From: an uncultured delta proteobacterium
Lineage (GTDB): Bacteria; Desulfobacterota; Binatia; UBA9968
Direction of reading: 5' to 3'
DNA: 64,000 bases
Assembly: GCA_963847445.1 (NCBI GenBank)
Contig: CAWJZV010000046.1
Coordinates: forward strand, 408,749-472,748
Below are positions 17,615 through 34,705 of the stretch, piece after piece. The translations under genes and the position numbers were made by a program. Within the stretch, counting starts at the first letter, position 1; each line of letters begins with the position of its first letter. The notes beneath the pieces are model-generated. The model had not been told where the DNA came from. It saw only the letters and a list, made by a program, of their open reading frames with translations, and did no database searches.

Positions 17615-17932
17615 TTATAACGCTTCGGCGTGTAAACGAACGCCAAGGGCCTTGGCAACTCTCAGGACTGTGGCAAAGCTTGGATTACCTTTATTGCTCA
17701 GCGCCTTGTATAAGCTTTCGCGACTAAGGCCCGCATCGCGTGCCACACTCGACATTCCTTTGGCACGAGCGATATCGCCGAGCGCTCTAGCGATACCGGC
17801 CGGGTCATCTGGCGCTTCGTTCAGCCACGCGTCGAGATACGCAGCCCTTTCATCCGGTGTGCGCAGCTGTGCTGCTACATCATAAGGCACAGTCTTTGTT
17901 TTTCCGGTGGATTTAGATAACTTTTTGCGCAT
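17615..17932 (-). CDS. addiction-module antidote protein (HigA family HTH antitoxin)
   Basis: VPYDVAAQLRTPDERAAYLDAWL...IARAKGMSSVARDAGLSRESLYKALSNKGNPSFATVLRVAKALG is the typical putative addiction-module antidote pattern. It lies 10 nt downstream of the toxin gene. Confidence 0.8.
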   Translation of the reverse strand: MRKKLSKSTGKTKTVPYDVAAQLRTPDERAAYLDAWLNEAPDDPAGIARALGDIARAKGMSSVARDAGLSRESLYKALSNKGNPSFATVLRVAKALGVRLHAEAL

Positions 17933-17942
17933 GATTGTTCTC

Positions 17943-18218
17943 CTACAGATTTTGCGCCAGCGAAATGGCTTTTTGTATGTCTCGCTGTTGAGTTGATTTG
18001 TCCCCACCTGCTAGCAGAATGATGATTTCGTCTCCGCGTTCCATGTAGTAGACCCGATACCCGGGACCAAAATCGATCTTAAGCTCGCAGACACCTTCGG
18101 TGAGCCGCCGATATTGCCCGGGGTTTCCGTGCACGAGTCGATCGACCCGCACCTGAATGCGCGCGCGGCCTGTACGGTCTTTGAGAGAGTTGATCCAGTC
18201 CCGATAGACCTCGGTCAT
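17943..18218 (-). CDS. addiction-module killer protein (RelE/HigB-type toxin)
   Basis: RIQVRVDRLVHGNPGQYRRLTEGVCELKIDFGPGYRVYYMERGDEIIILLAGGDKSTQQRDI matches the killer-protein family pattern. Confidence 0.8.
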   Translation of the reverse strand: MTEVYRDWINSLKDRTGRARIQVRVDRLVHGNPGQYRRLTEGVCELKIDFGPGYRVYYMERGDEIIILLAGGDKSTQQRDIQKAISLAQNL

Positions 18219-18404: not shown

Positions 18405-19710
18405 TTACTGTTTGATATCTCGCGGCGCGGTCTTTTTTAGCAACAAGGCGAGAAGCTCGAGGCGCTCCTTAGAAAGATTCTTGAGCGCGGATGACGAACC
18501 ATCGCTCTCGCGGGCATACGCCTCTTGCTTCACCGCAGGCACAGCAGCCAGATTTTCCAGATATTCCTCAACCGGCGCGATCGAAAGCTTCGAAACGTAA
18601 TTCTCTGCGGCCTCCCGGGAGGCTGTGGATAGCTCGTCATAATGCTGCCGATCAGAGAGAAGTCGCTTCAACGCGTCGAGCCAAGGCCGAATATCTTGAT
18701 CGGGGACGAACGGGACTGGAAGCATCTGGTCATCTCGGCGCGTCTGGTAGCGCGCGATGGGCTCAACCGGCAAGAGATAGTCCACGCCTAGTTTTGCTTC
18801 GGGTAGGCCGCCAAGATTGCTAGCCAAGACCGGGATTCCTCTGAGCATCGACTCGACGACGATCTTGCCAAAGGCTTCCCCCCACAGCGATGGCACCAGC
18901 ATAATGCGGGTCCGGGCGAAAATCTGATCTATATCCTCGGTCGGCTGAAGCAGCTCCACATTAGGAAATTGTTTTAGGGCAACCCGGTCTGCAGCGGTAG
19001 TGGCCCAAGTCGGCACTGCGGCAAACCTTTCCGCAGGTAAAGCGCGCGCCAGCTCTAAAAAAATGGCAATGCCTTTGATCGCCGACGGGTTGACCATCGT
19101 AATGAAGGCGTTATCCAATGATCCGGAGTGGGGCCACGGTGGGCTCCCGTAAGCCGGCAAGGAAATGGCGACCGAGTCCAGGCCGCCCCATTTATAAATA
19201 TAACTCTTCAGGTAATTGCTGACCGCTATGATTCCAGCCGTCCGCTGTAGCATTTGTGTCCTTCAACGGATCCGGCGAAAAACACTCGGGACCGAAAGGC
19301 AGAGTCGCCTGGCTGTGCGATAGATAAACAACACGTCCCGGCATGCTCTCCAGGGCAGCCGCCAGGGCAAGATAACTAGGATCCTCGGATATCAAAATCC
19401 AATCCGGCGAAAACTCTCCGACCTGCTTCAGAAGCTGGCCGCAAAATTGACTGGTGTCGGCGAGTTGGTGAACCTGAACGCCCTGGAGATCAAATCTCTC
19501 GGTGCAAGGCGAGAATCCCGCTTCGGTCGGATTCAATGACTCGTTGCGCGATCCGCGGCGCGACGCGAAATGCGTTGCGGTGTGCGCCAACGCGAGGACT
19601 CTGCACAGGTGGCCTCTTCGGCTAAGATATTGCAGCAGCTCGCGGTTTGATTTTGCCGCCCCGGTCCAGCTCGGCGAATACGATAATTTCTGCGCCAGAA
19701 ATATTTTCAC
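18405..19710 (-). CDS. glycosyltransferase family 1 (GT4-type) (one apparent frameshift near 19200-19250)
   Basis: The N-terminus MKIFLA...RELLQYLSRRGHLCRVLA is GT4 N-domain-like. The C-domain contains the EAFGKIVVESMLRGIPVLASNLGGLPE (E-x7-E region) motif. Confidence 0.75.
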
Positions 19711-19723
19711 GAAATCGCCAAAC

Positions 19724-21922
19724 TCAGTCCTGGCTCTGATCTCTTCTGGCTAGCAAGGATTCAACCTGATCATCGGATAGTCCTTCGATTTTCTTCAAAA
19801 CCGCATCAAGTTCATCGACGCTGGCTGCATCGGCTTGTGCCATTAGAATCTCTCGGCAGAGTCCGCCAATAGTAAGTTTAGTCGTAAAGAATAGTCTCAC
19901 TGGGAGCTCAACGCCCAAATCTTTTCGGATGCGGGAGAGAACCTGCATACCGAGAAGGGAGTGACCTCCCAAATCGAAAAAGTTGTCATCGACGCCAATA
20001 CGCTCCAATCCCAGCAACTCCGACCACATGTGAGCCAGACGGTACTCGAGCGGAGAACGCGGAGGCACGAACGGCACGACGTCCCGCGGCAGAGGACGGC
20101 GCGTTTGTAAAACCACCTGGTGGATTCGCTCGGCGTCATTAAGTTCAATGGCAATAGAACTTAACAGCGACGCCTTTTCTCGGGCATCTCCCGAATCGGC
20201 GGAAATGACCGAAGGAGCCTCGTTCTCGGCGCTCGTCGCGGTGATTGTCGCCGCCTCCGGCGGCCGGTATTCGATGGCCGCCGCATACACGGCGGGAAAT
20301 CTGAAAAGAAAACCTCCGTCAATTGTTTCCTTCAAATCCGCGCCGACAATCTCCAAAAACTCCAAGGCGGGGCGATTTTTCTTGGTTTGGAGATAGCGCA
20401 CTTCGACTCGGTTTAAACCTCGCTGCATGGCAATTTCGCCTAGTCTCGACAGCAGGCGATGCTCGACGCCTTTGCCGAGCGCGCGACAGCTCAGCAGGAA
20501 GGTGTCCACGAGAATGCCATCAACGGCGGTAAAAATTATCACGCCAACGAGGCCATAGTCGCCAAACCGGTCTCTCAGGTTTACGATGAGACACTCCGCG
20601 TCGTGTCCTTGACAGAGGCGCTGAATGTCGCTCTCGGAACGTCGCTGGGTCGTAAAGTTAAACTGATTGGTTCTCTGGGTTAATTCCGCCACGCGGGGAA
20701 TTTGCTGCGGAACTAATGGCGAAATCTCAATTTTCAGATCGAGACCCGCTAGAAAATCCCTGAAACTAAGCGATGCATTGTGAAAGCTCGTCCGCTCTGA
20801 GCTCTGTTTGTAGGCTAGATTGCGTTGTTGCCCCTCGGCGGTGACCTTGAGATGATCAAAGATCCACAGATGTGATAAAAACCGCCCCGCCTGTTCCGGG
20901 TCCCGCGGAACTTGGAAGGTTAACACTTCAGGGCAGTGCGATTGCACTTCCGCGCACTCGACAGGATCGTCATCGAGAAAGATGAAACTGTCGCTGCCGA
21001 GGTTCAACTCCTGCGCTAAAGCTCTGATGTTTTCCGATTTTTGCCGCCAATTGATTCGCCGGGCGACAAAATGTTCGAGTTTCAAAGGCATATCGGAACG
21101 ATTTGCAAACACCTCGACGACATCCGCTTCATTGTTTTTGCTGCACAAACAAAGAAGCATTCCGGCATGATATTGTTCGAGCAGGAACTCTTGGATTTTT
21201 TTCCACGGCGGAGTTATCGCTATGCCAGCCGCGCCTTCTTCGCCGCATACCCCGCCCCAGAGCGTCTGATCGCAATCCAACACGATTACCTTATAGGGGT
21301 TGCTCGTAAGGCTGTAAATCTTCCGCGCGAGCATTGTCGCCAAGGCGCTGAAGAATAATGGCGTGTACGGGATATGGGCTAAACTGTCAGTGTGAGGATC
21401 ATGATATTCCGCTACCGGATAGCAGGCGAATAGTTCAGCTGGCGAAATGACGTGGACTCCAGGTATTTCTTGCAATTCGGCCTGCAGCGACGCTGCTATA
21501 TCTTCGAAAAATCGTTTTCTGTCCGGGTCCATCACAACCGCCGGTGACGCCGGACACAAACAGACGATCTGCGGCGTCGCCGAGCGCTCGGCGGCGGTTG
21601 TAACGGCGCGCGCAAAGTCGCGCGCGTCACGTTCGAGCGCCGGAAACGACAGTTCGGCAGCTTGCCGCCCTGCGGCACTCTTTTGCCAGTCTTCAAAGCA
21701 TACCAGAATAATATTGACACCCGTGCGGTTGGTGCCGAGCAAGCTAGACGGATCCACGAGCTGTTGAAATACCTGGTTGTACGGCGCAAAAGTGATCCGC
21801 GCCGGTATCTGGAGTTCCTCCAGCCAGAACGTCAGCGGTCGCTCGAGGGGCTCCGCCGTAAAGGTAGCAGTGATCGCAATCGTTCGCTCTGCGTTCCTAG
21901 GATCCAATTCATCATTCAACAT
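19724..21922 (-). CDS. FkbH-like HAD-IIIC phosphatase/acyltransferase fused to a C-terminal carrier (PP-binding) domain
   Basis: The HAD motif I context is KVIVLDCDQTLWGGVCGEEG, followed by a GNAT-like segment (DRFGDYGLVGVII...LLSCRALGKGVE). The C-terminal part FFDLGGHSLLGMQVLSRI carries the phosphopantetheine Ser motif. Confidence 0.8.
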   Translation of the reverse strand: MLNDELDPRNAERTIAITATFTAEPLERPLTFWLEELQIPARITFAPYNQVFQQLVDPSSLLGTNRTGVNIILVCFEDWQKSAAGRQAAELSFPALERDARDFARAVTTAAERSATPQIVCLCPASPAVVMDPDRKRFFEDIAASLQAELQEIPGVHVISPAELFACYPVAEYHDPHTDSLAHIPYTPLFFSALATMLARKIYSLTSNPYKVIVLDCDQTLWGGVCGEEGAAGIAITPPWKKIQEFLLEQYHAGMLLCLCSKNNEADVVEVFANRSDMPLKLEHFVARRINWRQKSENIRALAQELNLGSDSFIFLDDDPVECAEVQSHCPEVLTFQVPRDPEQAGRFLSHLWIFDHLKVTAEGQQRNLAYKQSSERTSFHNASLSFRDFLAGLDLKIEISPLVPQQIPRVAELTQRTNQFNFTTQRRSESDIQRLCQGHDAECLIVNLRDRFGDYGLVGVIIFTAVDGILVDTFLLSCRALGKGVEHRLLSRLGEIAMQRGLNRVEVRYLQTKKNRPALEFLEIVGADLKETIDGGFLFRFPAVYAAAIEYRPPEAATITATSAENEAPSVISADSGDAREKASLLSSIAIELNDAERIHQVVLQTRRPLPRDVVPFVPPRSPLEYRLAHMWSELLGLERIGVDDNFFDLGGHSLLGMQVLSRIRKDLGVELPVRLFFTTKLTIGGLCREILMAQADAASVDELDAVLKKIEGLSDDQVESLLARRDQSQD

Positions 21923-21943: not shown

Positions 21944-22342
21944 TTAGGCGATGTGACCTGACCATAAATGTGCAGCAGCCTTACTGCTCTCGAGCTGGTG
22001 CACCGTCACGAGGCGTCCGACAACGGCTTCGGCGAGCGCGACGCGCGGATAGCGGCCCTGTGGCCCGCCCCCGGAAGCATCGATGTTTTTAGCGCCGGCG
22101 AGGTTGACCCAAAAGGGATCATCTTCGGTCCTCGGCTTATCTGGGCCGACCATACGGCGCAGCGCGGCCGCGCTGCGCCAGCTTGCGGCTCCAACGGCAA
22201 TCCAGCATTGGTAGCGGTCCGGACTAGTCGTTAAAGTCAAAAACGCGTGAGGTCGCACCGCTTCGGCTGCCTGAGAATCGAGTTGATCGACCATTACCAT
22301 CAAGGGTTCGCCCGGCCGGTCATTGGTCAGAGGCCGGATCAT
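21944..22342 (-). CDS. RepB'-type primase-like domain, probably the C-terminal domain of the upstream GT2 gene (1-nt break in T-run 22347-22349)
   Basis: The motif order is NVMIRP, MVMVDQLD, TTSPDRYQCWIAV, LAGAKN. It continues from DRFDLLL...LPAHLQAADDRKL at the end of the GT2 ORF and resembles plasmid RepB' primases as I recall them. It needs HMM confirmation. Confidence 0.45.
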   Translation of the reverse strand: MIRPLTNDRPGEPLMVMVDQLDSQAAEAVRPHAFLTLTTSPDRYQCWIAVGAASWRSAAALRRMVGPDKPRTEDDPFWVNLAGAKNIDASGGGPQGRYPRVALAEAVVGRLVTVHQLESSKAAAHLWSGHIA

Positions 22343-23444
22343 AACGTTTAAGTTTCCGATCGTCTGCAGCTTGCAAATGCGCTGGCAATCTCTCGAATAG
22401 TTGGTCGGGATCTAAAGCAGCCTCGGAAACAAGCAACTCGCCGGAATCAGTCGTCAGCAACAAGTCAAACCGATCCTTATCGACAGACAAAAATAGCGCA
22501 ATGATGAGCTGCGCCTGCTCCAAGCAGGAGCGGGAATCAGTCGGTCCAGTTTCGCGGACGTCGAGACCGGTCATCAGGCGACGGTGCCCTCGGGCCCAGC
22601 GTGAAGTTGTGTGATCCGCTTCAGGTGCAGTCTTGTCTGTAAAGAAGCGCACGGTCGCGACGTTCCACTTTTGATTAAAATGCTGGACTGTCCTCAGGTT
22701 CCAAGCTTCACTCCAGCGCAACATGAAATAGGGTAGATCCGACTCTTCACAAGGAGGCGGCGGAACGTAGCTGGTGACCGCCGTCGGCTCGATGTATACC
22801 GCTCCTCCGGCCTTTTGCACTTCCAAACACAGGTCAATGTGCTCCTGGTGGCTCAATAACTTTTCATCCAGCGGGCCGAGTTTCGCGAACACGTCCGTGC
22901 GAACCAACATGCAATGGAATTCCGCGTAGTCCCAAGCGCTTCTTTGGAGCGGCACTTCTAGGTTAGCCATGGGAGTATCGAAAAGATATTGCTCGTCGTA
23001 AAGCACTCTTTGCCCTTGTTGCTCGGTGAATTTTAAAATTCCCCCCGCCATGTGGATCTTCTGGCGCTCGATCTCACCAAAAAGATAAAGCGGTCCGACA
23101 ATCCATGCTCCTGTTTCTTCGGCGCATTGCACTAAGGCCTCGAGCCAACCGCGCGTGACCAGCGCATCATTGTCCACGAAGACGATGTATTCGGTGCTGA
23201 TCTCGCTGGCGCCGAGATTTCGCGCTTGGTTAGGCGACAAAAATTGGTCCGTGTGGATAAGTTTGAAGCCCTTTGATTCCGCCTTCGCTGCGATCCGACG
23301 GTACATAGGTTCGGGGGTGCCGGCGCTGACGTAAATCAGTTTGAAAGGAAGTGTCGTTTCCTGGTAAACGTTTTCGAGGGTGCGCTCACTATGGCTGAAA
23401 CGCTCCCTCGGTACTATCACGACGGTGACTTGTGGTTCTGACAT
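22320..23444 (-). CDS. glycosyltransferase family 2, with a C-terminal extension that continues into 21944..22342
   Basis: VTVVIVPRERFSHSERTLENVYQ and YIVFVDNDALVTRGWLEAL (DxD region) are typical of the GT-A fold. The last ~75 aa are not GT-like. Confidence 0.75.
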   Translation of the reverse strand: MSEPQVTVVIVPRERFSHSERTLENVYQETTLPFKLIYVSAGTPEPMYRRIAAKAESKGFKLIHTDQFLSPNQARNLGASEISTEYIVFVDNDALVTRGWLEALVQCAEETGAWIVGPLYLFGEIERQKIHMAGGILKFTEQQGQRVLYDEQYLFDTPMANLEVPLQRSAWDYAEFHCMLVRTDVFAKLGPLDEKLLSHQEHIDLCLEVQKAGGAVYIEPTAVTSYVPPPPCEESDLPYFMLRWSEAWNLRTVQHFNQKWNVATVRFFTDKTAPEADHTTSRWARGHRRLMTGLDVRETGPTDSRSCLEQAQLIIALFLSVDKDRFDLLLTTDSGELLVSEAALDPDQLFERLPAHLQAADDRKLKRYDPASDQ

Positions 23445-27992: not shown

Positions 27993-29451
27993 TTGCGCCG
28001 CTCTGCATTTTGCCGCTACCGACCCGTGATTTCACCGTCATCGACTCATAACAGCGAAACCATTCGCCGTCTGGTTCTGATCAATTCCATCTTGGGTGTG
28101 ACCATCGCGGGAGCTTCCGCGCGGGTCTTCATGATCTCGGTGCCGACGCTGGCAACGGCGCTCGATACCGACATGTTGGGCATCTCTTGGGCGCTGATTG
28201 TTTACCAGATGGCAGGTATCGGCCTGGGCGTGATCTGCGGCCGGCTGGGAGATATTCACGGCCACCACAAGACCTACGGGATCGGTATGTGGGTGATGGC
28301 GCTGGCTTCACTGCTCTGCGGCTTTTCACAAAATATCTGGCAGTTGATACTGTTCCGCTTTCTCCAGGGTATCGGCGGCGCGATAATTCAATCTTCGGGA
28401 CGCACGCTGGCTTTTAAAGCGATGCCCGCCGGCGTCCGAAGGAAAAGCCCAGGGGTTGATGGCGATGTCCCATCAATTGGGCTTCTTTATCGGTCCCCCT
28501 ATCGGCGGGCTGATCATCGATCTGGTGCATTGGCGCGGGGTTTTTTTTCTCCTGTTTGTCCCGAGTCTGGCGGGCGCGGCTTTGTGCATGATGACGGGGC
28601 GCGCCGCGGCTGCCGCACCAATGCGCCGGCAGGCGATCGATTACCGCGGCGCCTTGCTGCTCTTCGCCTTGACGGTACTCGCGACGTTGTTGCTTGATCA
28701 AAAAGTCGCCCAGGCGGTGGGCACCGGCAGCGAGCTGTTGTTGGGGTCGGTATTTCTCGCCGCGCTGTGGCTTTTTCTTGTCCACGAAAAGCGCGCGCCC
28801 AGTCCGCTAGTCGATCTATCGATTTTCTCGGTTAAAGTTTTTGGCTATGGCTCGGTGGGGCTGTTGTTCTGCAACATCAACCAGGGCCTGTCCACCTTCA
28901 TCACGCCTTTTTACCTGCAACAGGTGCTCAACTTATCGCCGACGTTCATGGGCGCGATTTTTCTCGTGCCGTCGTTGTTGAGCATGGTGTTGTCGCCGGT
29001 GAGCGGCGCTCTCACCGACCGCATCGGTTCGCGCTTGCTGTTGATTGTCGGCGTGCTGGTGCTGATGGCGAGCTTTATCATCGGCGCCTACCTGCGCAGC
29101 GATTCTCACTGGCTGCTGCCGACGATTTTGTTAGCTCTTACCGGTATCGGTTCGGCATTTTTCAACACGGCATCGCAGGCGGCGATGATCCGCGCCTTGC
29201 CCAAGGAAAATTGGGGCACGGCGATCGGCATCATCAACGGGGTTTTCGGTCTTGGCCATATGCTCGGCATTTCCTTGAGCGGCATCTTCTTGACCCTGGC
29301 GTTTCGCTACTACACCGGCGATGCCGGCGCGACGCCCGACCCGGCGAATAGCTCTTTGTTCGTGGCGGCGATGAATTTGACCTACGTCTTTGCTTTGGCG
29401 CTCGCCGTCATCCCTTTGTTTACCTCGACTAAGATCAAGGGCAGGGAATAG
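27993..29451 (+). CDS. MFS transporter (one apparent frameshift near 28430; start uncertain)
   Basis: Multiple TM segments and the MFS motif GRLGDIHGHHK after TM2 are present. The second ORF 28456..29451 continues the TM series. Confidence 0.7.
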
Positions 29452-32130: not shown

Positions 32131-32776
32131 CTATTTCTTCGGCGCGCCGGCGAATTCGTTCTTGTCTTTGAGGCGGCGCACCAGCTCTTCGTAGGAGGAT
32201 TTGGCGATCACGCGGTTGAACTGGGAACGATAGTTGTTGACCAGGCTGATGTTCTCGGCAACGACATCGTAAACCTTCCACTCGTTGCCGACCAATTGAG
32301 CGCGGTAGTTGATCGAGTATTCTTCGCCCTTGCTGGTGACAATTTTGCTGTTCACGTCGGCGTAGCCGCCGTCGACTTTTTCGGTCAAGTAGACGATTTT
32401 TTCGTCGATATAGGACTCGATGATATCGGCGTAGGCACGTTCCAGTACCTCGGTGAACAGGCGGACAAATTCTTCCTGTTCCTGAGGCGTGCGCCGGGTC
32501 CAGTTGGGGCCGAGAGAACGCTTGGCCATTTCGGCAAAATTGAACCGGCTAAATAGCACCTGTTTTAGTTGTTCGCGTCGTTCGGACTGCTTGGTCGGCG
32601 GCTTCAAGCGCGGGATCTCTGAGCACCACTAAGGCCTTGTCGACGGTCGCCTTGATCTGGTCCGTGGGCAGGCCGGCGCGGGCCTGGGAGGCGGTCAGGG
32701 TGACTGCTGCAAACCATAGGGCTATTAGAAGCTTCACTGGATTATTTAGACTTAGGGGTCTCATCTTTTTTTTCAC
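32131..32776 (-). CDS. mlaC: MlaC/Ttg2D family phospholipid-binding protein (one apparent frameshift near 32590)
   Basis: It has a signal peptide, then FNFAEMAKRSLGPNWTRRTPQEQEEFVRLFTEVLERAY, typical of MlaC. It lies downstream of mlaD. Confidence 0.75.
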
Positions 32777-33224
32777 CTTTAGACGTCAGATCGCCGCCAA
32801 CAATTTTACCGATCAAATCGGGAATATCCGGCGGGGAGTCGGTTTCGCGAATTTTCCCGCCGGCAGGGATGATTTTATCCGATGCGCCGGGCGATACCAA
32901 GACAAATTTATCGCCGATCAAGCCGCGCGCCCGAACTGAGGCGATGACATCTTCCTGGAGCTTGACGCCGTCGTTAAGCCGCAGGGTCAAGCGGGCCTTA
33001 TCTTCGGCCAAGGTCATGCCTTCGACCCGGCCGACTTTGACACCGGCGATCTCCACGGGATCCCCGAGCTTTAGACCGGCAACTGAGGCAAAATCGGCGA
33101 AAAGCACGTAACCCTGGGCGCCGAACACTTCAAGCTTGCCGAGACGGATGGCGAGATAGCCCAGGCAGGTAATGCCGACCAGGACAAAGATGCCGACTAA
33201 TATATCAGTGCGTGTATGATTCAC
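32742..33224 (-). CDS. mlaD: MlaD (MCE domain) protein
   Basis: An N-terminal TM helix is followed by FADFASVAGLKLGDPVEIAGVKVGRVEGM, the MCE core pattern. Confidence 0.85.
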   Translation of the reverse strand: MNHTRTDILVGIFVLVGITCLGYLAIRLGKLEVFGAQGYVLFADFASVAGLKLGDPVEIAGVKVGRVEGMTLAEDKARLTLRLNDGVKLQEDVIASVRARGLIGDKFVLVSPGASDKIIPAGGKIRETDSPPDIPDLIGKIVGGDLTSKGEKKDETPKSK

Positions 33225-33235
33225 TGTCGCAACTC

Positions 33236-33984
33236 CTAGAGGACTTGGATCGGTCCTTCGGTTTTCCCATGGATGAATTGCTGTACCACTGGATTCGCCG
33301 ATGCACAGAACTCCGCCGGCGGCGAAATGTTTTCGATGATGCCGCCGGCGAGCATAGCAATGTAGTCTGAGATTTCAAAGACTTGCGGAATGGTATGACT
33401 GACGATGATGCCGGTATAACCAAACTCGTTCTGAGTGCGGGCGATCAGTTGGTGAATGCTGGTGGCCAACACCGGGTCCAAGCCGGTGGTCGGTTCGTCG
33501 AACAGGACGATTTCCGGGTCCATGATCAGCGCCCGCGCCAATCCGGCGCGCTTTCTCATGCCGCCGCTCAGCTCGGCGGGAAATTTGCCGCCCATCTTGC
33601 CCAGGCCGACCTGCTCCAAGCGGCTATCGACCTTCTTCTTGATGTCGCTTTCGCTGGCATGCTGGTTTTTTCGCGCAGGGGAAAGGCGACGTTGTCGAAT
33701 ACACTCAGCGAGTCCAGCAGGGCGGCGCCTTGAAACAGCACGCCGAATTTGGCGCGCACTTCGTAGAGTTCTTTCTGGCGCAGTTTGGTAATGTCGACGC
33801 CGTCGACGAAAACTTCGCCGGCATCGGGCAGATAGAGGGCGTTCAAATGTTTCAGCAAGACGGTTTTGCCGCAGCCGCTGGTGCCGACGATGGTGGTGAT
33901 CTTGCCGGTGGCGAACTCTAGGTTCACGCCGCGCAGGACCTGTTGGCCGCGAAAGCTCTTGTGTAGATTGGCGACTTGGATCAT
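33236..33984 (-). CDS. mlaF: MlaF-type ABC transporter ATP-binding protein (one apparent frameshift near 33600)
   Basis: Walker A GTSGCGKT, signature LSGGMRKRAGLARAL and Walker B IVLFDEPTTGLD are present. Confidence 0.85.
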
Positions 33985-33989
33985 GGCGC

Positions 33990-34705
33990 TCAGAGCATGA
34001 TGGAAGTCAGGAAGTAGTCCCAGACCAGAATGAAGACGAACGACAAGACCACCGACTCGGTGGTCGCTTGGCTGACACCGGTGGCCATGGGCGGGGCGTG
34101 AAAACCCTTGTAACAACAGATCCAGGTGATGATCAGGCCGAAGGAAATCGATTTGACGAAGCCGCTGTAGACATCGTGGAACACCACGCTGTTTTCGATG
34201 CCGGCAAAAAAACTGCCGGAACTAACCCCCAACATGGAGACCCCGACTAAGTAGGAGCCGAAGATGCCGATGACGTCGAAGATGGCGGTCAGCAGCGGCA
34301 TGGCGATCAGACTGGCGATGATGCGCGGCGAAACCAGAACTTGATCGGGTTGATCGCCATGGAGTCGAGCGCGTCGATCTGTTCGGTGGCGCGCATGGTG
34401 CCCAGCTCGGCGGCCATGGCGGAGCCGGTTCTGCCGGTGACCATGAAGGCGGACAGCACCGGCCCCAATTCACGCAACAGACTCAGGGCGGCGGCCGAAC
34501 CGAGATAGCTTTCGGCGCTGAATTTGCGCAGGCTATAGTAACCCTGGAAGCCCATCACCATGCCGGTGAAAAATCCCGACAGCGCGACCACGGACAGCGA
34601 ATCCACGCCGATGGTTTTGATGTGGTAGACGATCAGGTTAAGCTTGGCCGGACGGCGGAACACCAGCATGATCGCCGACAGGAGAAAGTTAAACATTTTC
34701 CCCAT
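33990..34705 (-). CDS. mlaE: MlaE-type ABC transporter permease (one apparent frameshift near 34300)
   Basis: GPVLSAFMVTGRTGSAMAAELGTMRATEQIDALDSMAINP is the conserved MlaE loop. The remainder is hydrophobic. Confidence 0.8.

Follow-up and report, generated by a model that had tools for sequence, protein, structure and literature searches.

Domains of the archaeo-eukaryotic primase (AEP) fold are known as nucleic-acid-acting enzymes of replication, repair, and defense, and the closest described counterpart of the domain considered here is RepB', the primase of the IncQ plasmid RSF1010 (PDB entries 3H20 and 3H25; Pfam family PF16793). In RepB', primer synthesis is lost with each of the single substitutions D77A, D78A, and D134A and nearly lost with R145A, and the isolated catalytic domain is inactive, the helix-bundle domain (PF22448) being needed for dinucleotide formation (PMC8567376). 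We have analyzed a stretch of 64,000 nucleotides (nt) of DNA (hereafter the window; contig CAWJZV010000046.1, positions 408,749 to 472,748) from an uncultured delta proteobacterium, in which a gene for a family-2 glycosyltransferase (GT2) continues into a RepB'-like domain. This fused domain has in common with RepB' the fold and the order of the motifs RFD, xIRP, hhhhD (h, hydrophobic), (E)T.P.YQ.W, and LAG. However, residues D78, D134, R145, S101, and N151 of RepB' are not conserved in the clade of fusion proteins, the helix bundle that RepB' carries is missing, and whereas RepB' belongs to a plasmid replication module, the fused domain stands behind a glycosyltransferase in chromosomal biosynthetic cassettes.

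The glycosyltransferase fusion and its RepB'-like domain

In the window, the gene appears as two open reading frames (ORFs), and the following features are referred to below.

21944..23444, minus strand: fused GT2 and RepB'-like gene, 499 amino acids (aa) plus stop after frame correction; split into two ORFs in the window
22320..23444, minus strand: GT2 ORF, 374 aa, with the C-terminal end ...LPAHLQAADDRKLKRYDPASDQ before its stop
21944..22342, minus strand: second ORF, 132 aa counted from ATG, with the start MIRPLTNDRPGEPLMVMVDQLDS...; its frame is open further upstream (..NLNVMIRP)
22575..23444, minus strand: GT-A fold family-2 glycosyltransferase region, aa 1-290 (Pfam PF00535, E 5.8e-12)
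22356..22526, minus strand: N-terminal third of the RepB'-like domain, aa 307-363 (helix LEQAQLIIALF, RFD strand, LP helix), in the frame of the GT2 ORF; aligned to RepB' 18-58
22353..22355, no strand assigned: frameshift site, TTT on the plus strand and AAA in the coding sense; two bases in three related contigs
21947..22352, minus strand: C-terminal two-thirds of the RepB'-like domain (NLNVMIRP ... HLWSGHIA), positions 58-193 of the domain hidden Markov model
22283..22288, minus strand: DQ pair at the position of RepB' D77-D78 (joint alignment)
22103..22129, minus strand: TEDDPFWVN, with T in the column of the catalytic D134 and the last N in the R145 column of RepB' (joint alignment)

The two ORFs overlap by 23 nt in different frames, both on the minus strand, and deletion of one base turns them into a single protein of 499 aa, as a first-pass annotation made from the DNA letters had proposed. 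The frameshift cuts the domain profile in two, with positions 1-59 in the frame of the GT2 ORF and positions 58-193 in the next frame, so that the two ORFs cannot be independent genes; in-frame orthologs likewise rule out that reading. Such orthologs are frequent. A scan of GTDB species genomes, for which a 16-sequence alignment was too diverse and a 6-sequence alignment was used, found intact fusion ORFs of 473-504 aa at 14 loci (L002-L015), all ending directly after the domain. A metagenome scan added 31 further loci, at which, wherever upstream sequence exists, a single open frame runs from the GT2 through the domain, except at L096; the metagenome contig L084 is intact, and its domain has 96% aa identity to that of the window. 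An exhaustive protein search found an intact 499-aa ortholog (P0007, on the short-read contig L080), and two fragments from a word-indexed protein search (P0002 and P0003, 76-77% identity) cross the junction uninterrupted. Intact orthologs of the fusion are P0007, L002-L015, and L084-L113, and the fusion as such recurs at no fewer than 47 loci (at least 47) in Acidobacteriota, Chloroflexota, and metagenome-assembled genomes labeled as proteobacteria. The proposal that a GT2 is fused to a primase-like domain is therefore borne out by intact ORFs in 14 genomes and in metagenome contigs, and a search for homologs with the same fusion found them in both kinds of data.

For the N-terminal part, Pfam PF00535 scores 46.3 bits against a cut-off of 23.3, and PF10111 and PF13641 are likewise above their cut-offs. 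The DXD motif reads DND (aa 91-93, 23166-23174), and (F/L)DND is kept in all full-length relatives. By its sequence, this part belongs to the family-2 (GT-A) glycosyltransferases, and its DXD motif is intact. The best named NCBIfam matches of the fusion (MftF, 4.9e-17; EpsD, AglG, and HpsN) are all far under their equivalog cut-offs.

The C-terminal domain comprises residues 307-499 (∼190 residues). When a five-sequence profile of it was searched against 177,635 PDB sequences, 3H25 (E 7e-8) and 3H20 (E 1.8e-7) were the sole matches at E <= 10, a similarity for which chance does not account, and the alignment, of profile positions 16-174 with RepB' residues 18-177, spanned the entire catalytic domain. 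A search of 1.84 billion representatives with this profile yielded 461 proteins at E <= 1e-3; among 34 longer relatives, Pfam assigns RepB_primase to 29 (best 4e-17), RepB_primase_C to 12, and GT2 to 4. When the 29 fusion-clade domains were compared by hhalign with RepB' and 106 other family members, the probability came to 100% (E 2e-48, 184 columns), both profiles having been taken out of one joint alignment. An AlphaFold2 model of the domain made with an 84-sequence alignment reached a predicted local distance difference test (pLDDT) score of 92.1 and a predicted template modeling score of 0.89 (pLDDT was 39 with a 5-sequence alignment). The top matches of this model in the PDB by Foldseek are 3H25_A (E 2.5e-8) and 3H20 (E 3.1e-8), with a probability of 1.00 and TM scores of 0.60-0.66, followed by the AEP domain of the cyanophage S-2L PrimPol (5.9e-4), the CRISPR-associated Prim-Pol (CAPP), and the catalytic subunits of eukaryotic and archaeal primases. 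The motifs that the first-pass annotation had given for RepB' (ERFDI, NDVYIRP, LVLVDDL, ETSPKNYQAW, and RLAGFTNRK) are all present in the 3H20 sequence, and those of the window align with them. Direct Pfam annotation of the frame-corrected protein gave a weaker signal: the RepB_primase family PF16793 stays below threshold on the window domain (12.9 bits, E 0.1, cut-off 24.3), matches at E <= 1 in 2 of 16 fusion-clade representatives, and is absent from precomputed annotations. The assignment to RepB' thus stands on profile, hhalign, and structural matches and on Pfam matches in the longer relatives. Overall, the results show that residues 307-499 are a true but diverged homolog of the catalytic domain of RSF1010 RepB', with the AEP fold.

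The closest canonical relatives are RepB-family proteins of ∼600 aa from uncultured mobile elements (among them P0010, P0021, and P0026), which match the clade profile at E 1e-20 to 1e-45. Like the fused domain, they have an N-terminal helix QAxLMxxAFxSV and the LP motif. They differ in that they retain QLDDL, GAD, and R-AGS-N, in that many carry the RepB_primase_C helix bundle, and in their unrelated N-terminal region of ∼300 aa. These three proteins, ∼20 others (∼570-690 aa), and the gene at L083 6751-8547 consist of that ∼300-aa region, which has no Pfam match, followed by an intact primase domain and the helix bundle. The P0026 gene adjoins genes for an integrase, a PIN protein, and an HTH_17 (excisionase-like) protein, and this setting of one of the nearest canonical relatives suggests a mobile element as the source of the captured domain. 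A tblastn search of the PLSDB plasmids with the fused domain and with P0010 gave no match, and no named plasmid relative closer than RSF1010 RepB' was found there.

Active-site residues and selection on the domain

Retention of individual RepB' residues was counted in the joint alignment, first in the 29 fusion-clade domains and then in the 106 other family members.

D77: 24/29 in the fusion clade, 104/106 in the others
D78: 11/29 in the fusion clade, 99/106 in the others
S101 (Ser of ETSP): 1/29 in the fusion clade, 100/106 in the others
D134: 2/29 in the fusion clade, 95/106 in the others
R145: 8/29 in the fusion clade, 99/106 in the others
N151 (Asn after LAG): 9/29 in the fusion clade, 102/106 in the others

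The window domain itself has D-Q at positions 77 and 78, T at 134 (followed by EDD), and N at 145 before LAG, and it keeps N151. The DQ pair is common to the close relatives L001, L002, and P0007, and other members of the clade have DD, DN, DG, DH, DT, EV, or RN. The helix-bundle domain PF22448 was found in none of the fusion orthologs, all of which stop directly after the catalytic-type domain. The suggestion that the domain is catalytically altered, first made from the DD-to-DQ change, therefore holds for the clade and extends to S101, D134, R145, and N151; the DQ pair itself is, by the alignment, to be read as one sign of a clade-wide erosion of the active site. Fold-forming positions (F22, R64, P65, Q106, W108, and G148) are kept in the fusion clade, which reaches down to ∼30% sequence identity, and the ratio of nonsynonymous to synonymous substitution rates (dN/dS) lies at 0.16-0.37 in the domain, indicating purifying selection on it, and at 0.07-0.18 in the GT2. 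Because catalytic residues are unconserved and the helix bundle is absent, yet the fold residues are kept under purifying selection, the domain presents itself in these comparisons as a functional pseudo-enzyme, neither a primase nor a decaying remnant.

We considered whether the domain could nevertheless have retained nucleotidyl-transfer or primase-polymerase activity, either to make a nucleotide-linked intermediate or to prime a mobile element that bears the cassette. In favor of this, the fold is preserved, as are the IRP, YQxW, and LAG motifs, D77 is kept in most of the clade and the DD pair in 11 of its 29 members, and the nearest canonical relatives occur in mobile-element contexts. Against this, the clade has all but lost D134, S101, and, in most members, R145, together with the helix bundle, and RepB' loses its activity when a single one of them is missing (PMC8567376). 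Moreover, no integrase or replication genes are conserved at the fusion loci, which instead show biosynthetic synteny across phyla. Retained activity is therefore very unlikely in our view. A role for the domain in binding single-stranded nucleic acid, by which it would regulate or localize the enzyme, appears just as improbable: the fold is retained, and the RepB' catalytic domain does bind DNA specifically, at the ssiA hairpin (PMC8567376), but W50, a RepB' residue implicated in hairpin handling, is not conserved in the fusion clade, the linked genes encode carrier-protein enzymes, and no conserved non-coding element or hairpin-bearing origin was seen at the loci in a search that was not exhaustive. 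A mobile-element replication setting for the fusion was likewise not found, its conserved neighbors being biosynthetic, although no search for ssi hairpins was made.

Several points weigh against the reading of the domain as a non-catalytic homolog of RepB'. The two hhalign profiles share one alignment, and the alignment behind the AlphaFold2 model is dominated by canonical RepB relatives, so that the structural match to RepB' is not fully independent. DD is kept in 11 of the 29 clade members, and an acidic EDD lies right after the Thr equivalent to D134 in the window; residual binding of a metal or a nucleotide by the domain is conceivable. Taking these points into account, we hold the combined anatomy of the protein and its loss of primase function with high confidence.

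The split reading frame of the window

In DNA alignments of the window with L001, L002, and L084 (92-94% nucleotide identity), the extra base is found in the window only, within 22353-22355, where the coding sequence reads GGAAAC in the window and GGAAC in the relatives. The first-pass annotation had placed it in the T-run at 22347-22349, 6 nt away from where the relatives put it. The corrected junction, ...AADDRNLNVMIRP, agrees with NRNLNV or NRNLNI in the orthologs. Two genes follow the fusion on the same strand.

19724..21922, minus strand: FkbH-domain protein with a C-terminal carrier domain (TIGR01686, E 1.3e-91; PF00550, E 1.1e-15)
18405..19710, minus strand: GT4 glycosyltransferase, the third gene of the cassette, with a window-only 1-nt insertion near 19253-19260

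The GT4 gene is broken into ORFs of 172 aa and 282 aa in the window and is in frame in L002, L003, L008, and L084. Because the relatives of the fusion are in frame and the adjoining GT4 gene is broken by another window-only insertion, a base inserted in error during assembly is the most likely cause of the split, as far as alignments with relatives can tell. Compared with both L002 and L084, the window has further unique single-base insertions, the full set being at ∼28433, 25126, 25117, 24890, 22353, and 19260, and L001, another contig of the lineage of the window, is full of frame breaks at other positions. The names of the contigs and bins of the close relatives (contig_N, MFD...bin) presumably indicate long-read soil assemblies. 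One point that weighs against an assembly error is that the extra base lies in a run of merely 2-3 A.

A genuine frameshift in the organism would make the gene, and perhaps the cassette including GT4, a recent pseudogene, or would leave a truncated GT2 and an orphan fragment to be expressed. The window has breaks in two of its three cassette genes, and the L096 contig also has an in-frame stop in the linker between GT2 and domain. However, the additional unique 1-nt insertions in unrelated neighboring genes, seen against two references, form the pattern of assembly noise, and the break lies within a folded domain. The corrected window gene, compared with its relatives, has a dN/dS of 0.12-0.18 in the GT2 and 0.16-0.18 in the domain; selection on it is not relaxed, and the values equal those of the intact copies. 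We therefore regard a genuine frameshift as unlikely. Programmed +1 ribosomal frameshifting that links both ORFs has a single point in its favor, namely that a +1 shift at CGG AAA CUU AAA C would restore the frame; all orthologs are in frame here and differ by exactly one base, and the site has neither a stop nor a rare codon and lacks a conserved stimulator, so that this explanation is effectively refuted and its probability practically negligible. The two-gene appearance of the locus in the window is thus most likely an indel artifact, and the window holds several more of the same kind.

Related observations were made on other sequences. A single-base insertion at window position ∼21928 is also listed as unique relative to L002 and L084, and several of the window-only insertions lie within genes, namely the ORFs at 27993-29451, a formyltransferase gene (at its 3' end), and a luciferase-like gene (at its 5' end). 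The breaks in other window genes that seem split (such as 32131-34116, minus strand) may have arisen in this way too. In L096, a metagenome contig of 2 kb, a nonsense mutation or else a read error has put the stop (1244-1246) in place of the His of the conserved linker motif RGHRRLMTGL. In P0005 (312 aa, encoded on a 2558-nt JGI contig), the GT2 tail and ∼50 initial residues of the primase-like domain give way to a ThuA-like sequence (PF06283), probably because of a frameshift or a chimeric assembly.

The FkbH-carrier cassette and a proposed role of the domain

The relatives of the GT2 part that lack the domain form an unnamed family of stand-alone GT2s (∼320-347 aa), mostly from cyanobacteria and also from Pyrinomonadaceae, with 41-50% identity to fusion residues 1 to ∼271-290 and weak NCBIfam similarity to GT2s of the MftF, HpsN, and EpsD types. 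They share with the fusion the DND motif, IHMAGG, EFHC, and the tail MLRWSE..HF..KW. In contrast to the fusion, they end in a short helical tail without a RepB'-like domain; this tail also accounts for cyanobacterial matches that reach residue ∼360, in which a vestigial domain was considered and ruled out. They often occur as two or three tandem paralogs, for example within ∼8 kb at L016, L017, L021, L079, and other Leptolyngbya-like cyanobacterial loci, which resemble exopolysaccharide loci and have weak NCBIfam similarity to HpsN/HpsE.

The gene neighborhoods of the two groups differ. An FkbH-carrier gene lies directly downstream of the fusion at 14/14 genome loci and adjoins the stand-alone GT2 gene at 0/64 loci (Fisher p = 1e-15, a value that overstates independence because the loci are related). 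Of 46 fusion loci overall, 33 have at least 1.5 kb of downstream sequence, and at 31 of these an FkbH-carrier gene follows within 3.5 kb on the same strand. In the window, its product scores 307 bits with TIGR01686 (cut-off 146.65) and 58 bits with PF00550, and its phosphopantetheine site GGHSL lies at aa 652-656 (19955-19969). After FkbH comes a second glycosyltransferase, which is a GT4 at 11 loci (including the close relatives of the window) or an EryCIII-like GT1 at 9. At 20 loci, although not in the window, a gene for an HD_4/DUF6817 protein stands between the fusion and FkbH, and at several loci stand-alone carrier proteins or adenylation-carrier didomains are encoded upstream of the fusion. 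The genes upstream of the fusion in the window (luciferase-like monooxygenase, formyltransferase, and hexapeptide protein) are syntenic in close relatives only and were for this reason rejected as members of the conserved cassette.

Further features of these loci were recorded. The HD_4/DUF6817 protein has ∼250 aa and is encoded right after the fusion (L004 11427-12242, L005 11489-12253, L087 2001-3140, and 17 others); in L087 it is fused to a methyltransferase-like C terminus, and in Pyrinomonadaceae (L024 and L027) its gene also follows stand-alone GT2 genes. Two diverged cassettes of fusion and FkbH (∼46-52% identity) are present per genome in MFD02360.bin.2.146 (L002 and L010) and in MFD02242.bin.2.64 (L007 and L009), L090 and L088 are also listed for multiple copies, and some contigs have two tandem fusion genes with an HD gene between them; the organism of the window may have a second copy of the cassette elsewhere. 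Just past the cassette, at 17615-18007 on the minus strand, the window encodes an HTH antidote-type protein (PF21716, HI1420-downstream family), which may be a member of a toxin-antitoxin pair.

Because the domain was found only in those GT2 copies that are followed by an FkbH-carrier gene and usually by an HD gene and a second glycosyltransferase (GT4 or GT1), we posit that the dead primase domain would act, within a glycoconjugate cassette that depends on a carrier protein, as a non-catalytic module for recognition or docking. Through it, the carrier protein loaded by FkbH, or its glyceryl-type cargo, would be offered to the GT2 active site, so that glycosylation would take place on the carrier-bound intermediate or directly after it, and the domain would have originated by exaptation of a mobile-element primase. 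This role, for which gene linkage is the evidence, is put forward tentatively.

Another non-catalytic purpose is a possible alternative, and we hold it in an equally tentative manner: the domain could bind an acceptor or product (glycan or lipid), bind a nucleotide or phosphate ligand allosterically, or make the GT2 oligomerize. Tasks of this type are common for accessory modules at the C terminus of other glycosyltransferases, the conserved residues are mainly those of the core (A316, F318, F326, W414, and G450), and nothing points directly to a carrier-protein interface. Alone, however, such a purpose fails to explain why the domain is restricted to loci linked to FkbH-carrier genes, and the cyanobacterial stand-alone GT2 relatives work without the domain. 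As for the docking role, it is weakened by having gene linkage as its single line of evidence, by the kinship among loci that inflates the Fisher statistic, and by L087, which has no FkbH gene within the contig and an HD-methyltransferase gene instead (L088 runs off its contig).

Blending anatomy, loss of primase function, and docking role, we regard the favored explanation as a whole as probable. A more specific version, which we consider rather doubtful, would have an AEP domain of a mobile element turned into a non-catalytic module with which a GT-A enzyme recognizes an FkbH-loaded carrier and glycosylates the tethered glyceryl unit; it would define a widespread, unannotated cassette of GT2-pseudoprimase, HD, FkbH-carrier, and second glycosyltransferase, with a glycoconjugate product, in soil Acidobacteriota, Chloroflexota, and proteobacterial lineages. 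An AEP domain that purifying selection maintains despite its eroded active site, within a glycosyltransferase of a carrier-protein-dependent biosynthetic cassette, would clearly exemplify how a replication-enzyme fold can be taken over as a pseudo-enzyme module for making small molecules or glycans. Nothing relevant came up in literature searches on the fusion, on PF16793, or on FkbH in combination with glycosyltransferases. The GT2-RepB' architecture is real, recurrent, and unannotated and, as far as these searches reach, apparently undescribed: a known fold in a new architecture, with what we take to be a non-catalytic role. The analysis gives ∼190 residues left blank by standard annotation a name and a testable hypothesis, and it flags a recurrent four-gene cassette in uncultured soil bacteria.

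Two described systems are close to the proposed pathway. FkbH-type enzymes that load glyceryl units onto carrier proteins are known from methoxymalonyl-acyl carrier protein and tetronate pathways. The partner gene of the fusion matches them in having a full FkbH domain above the curated TIGR01686 cut-off and a GGHSL carrier domain, and differs from them in being paired with glycosyltransferases and not with a polyketide synthase or tetronate enzymes. The other is PtmJ of pactamycin biosynthesis, a glycosyltransferase that acts on an intermediate bound to an acyl carrier protein (PMC9092360). It offers a precedent for sugar transfer to a carrier-tethered acceptor, as a mechanistic analogy only, with no sequence relationship claimed. 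To our knowledge, PtmJ has no primase-like domain.

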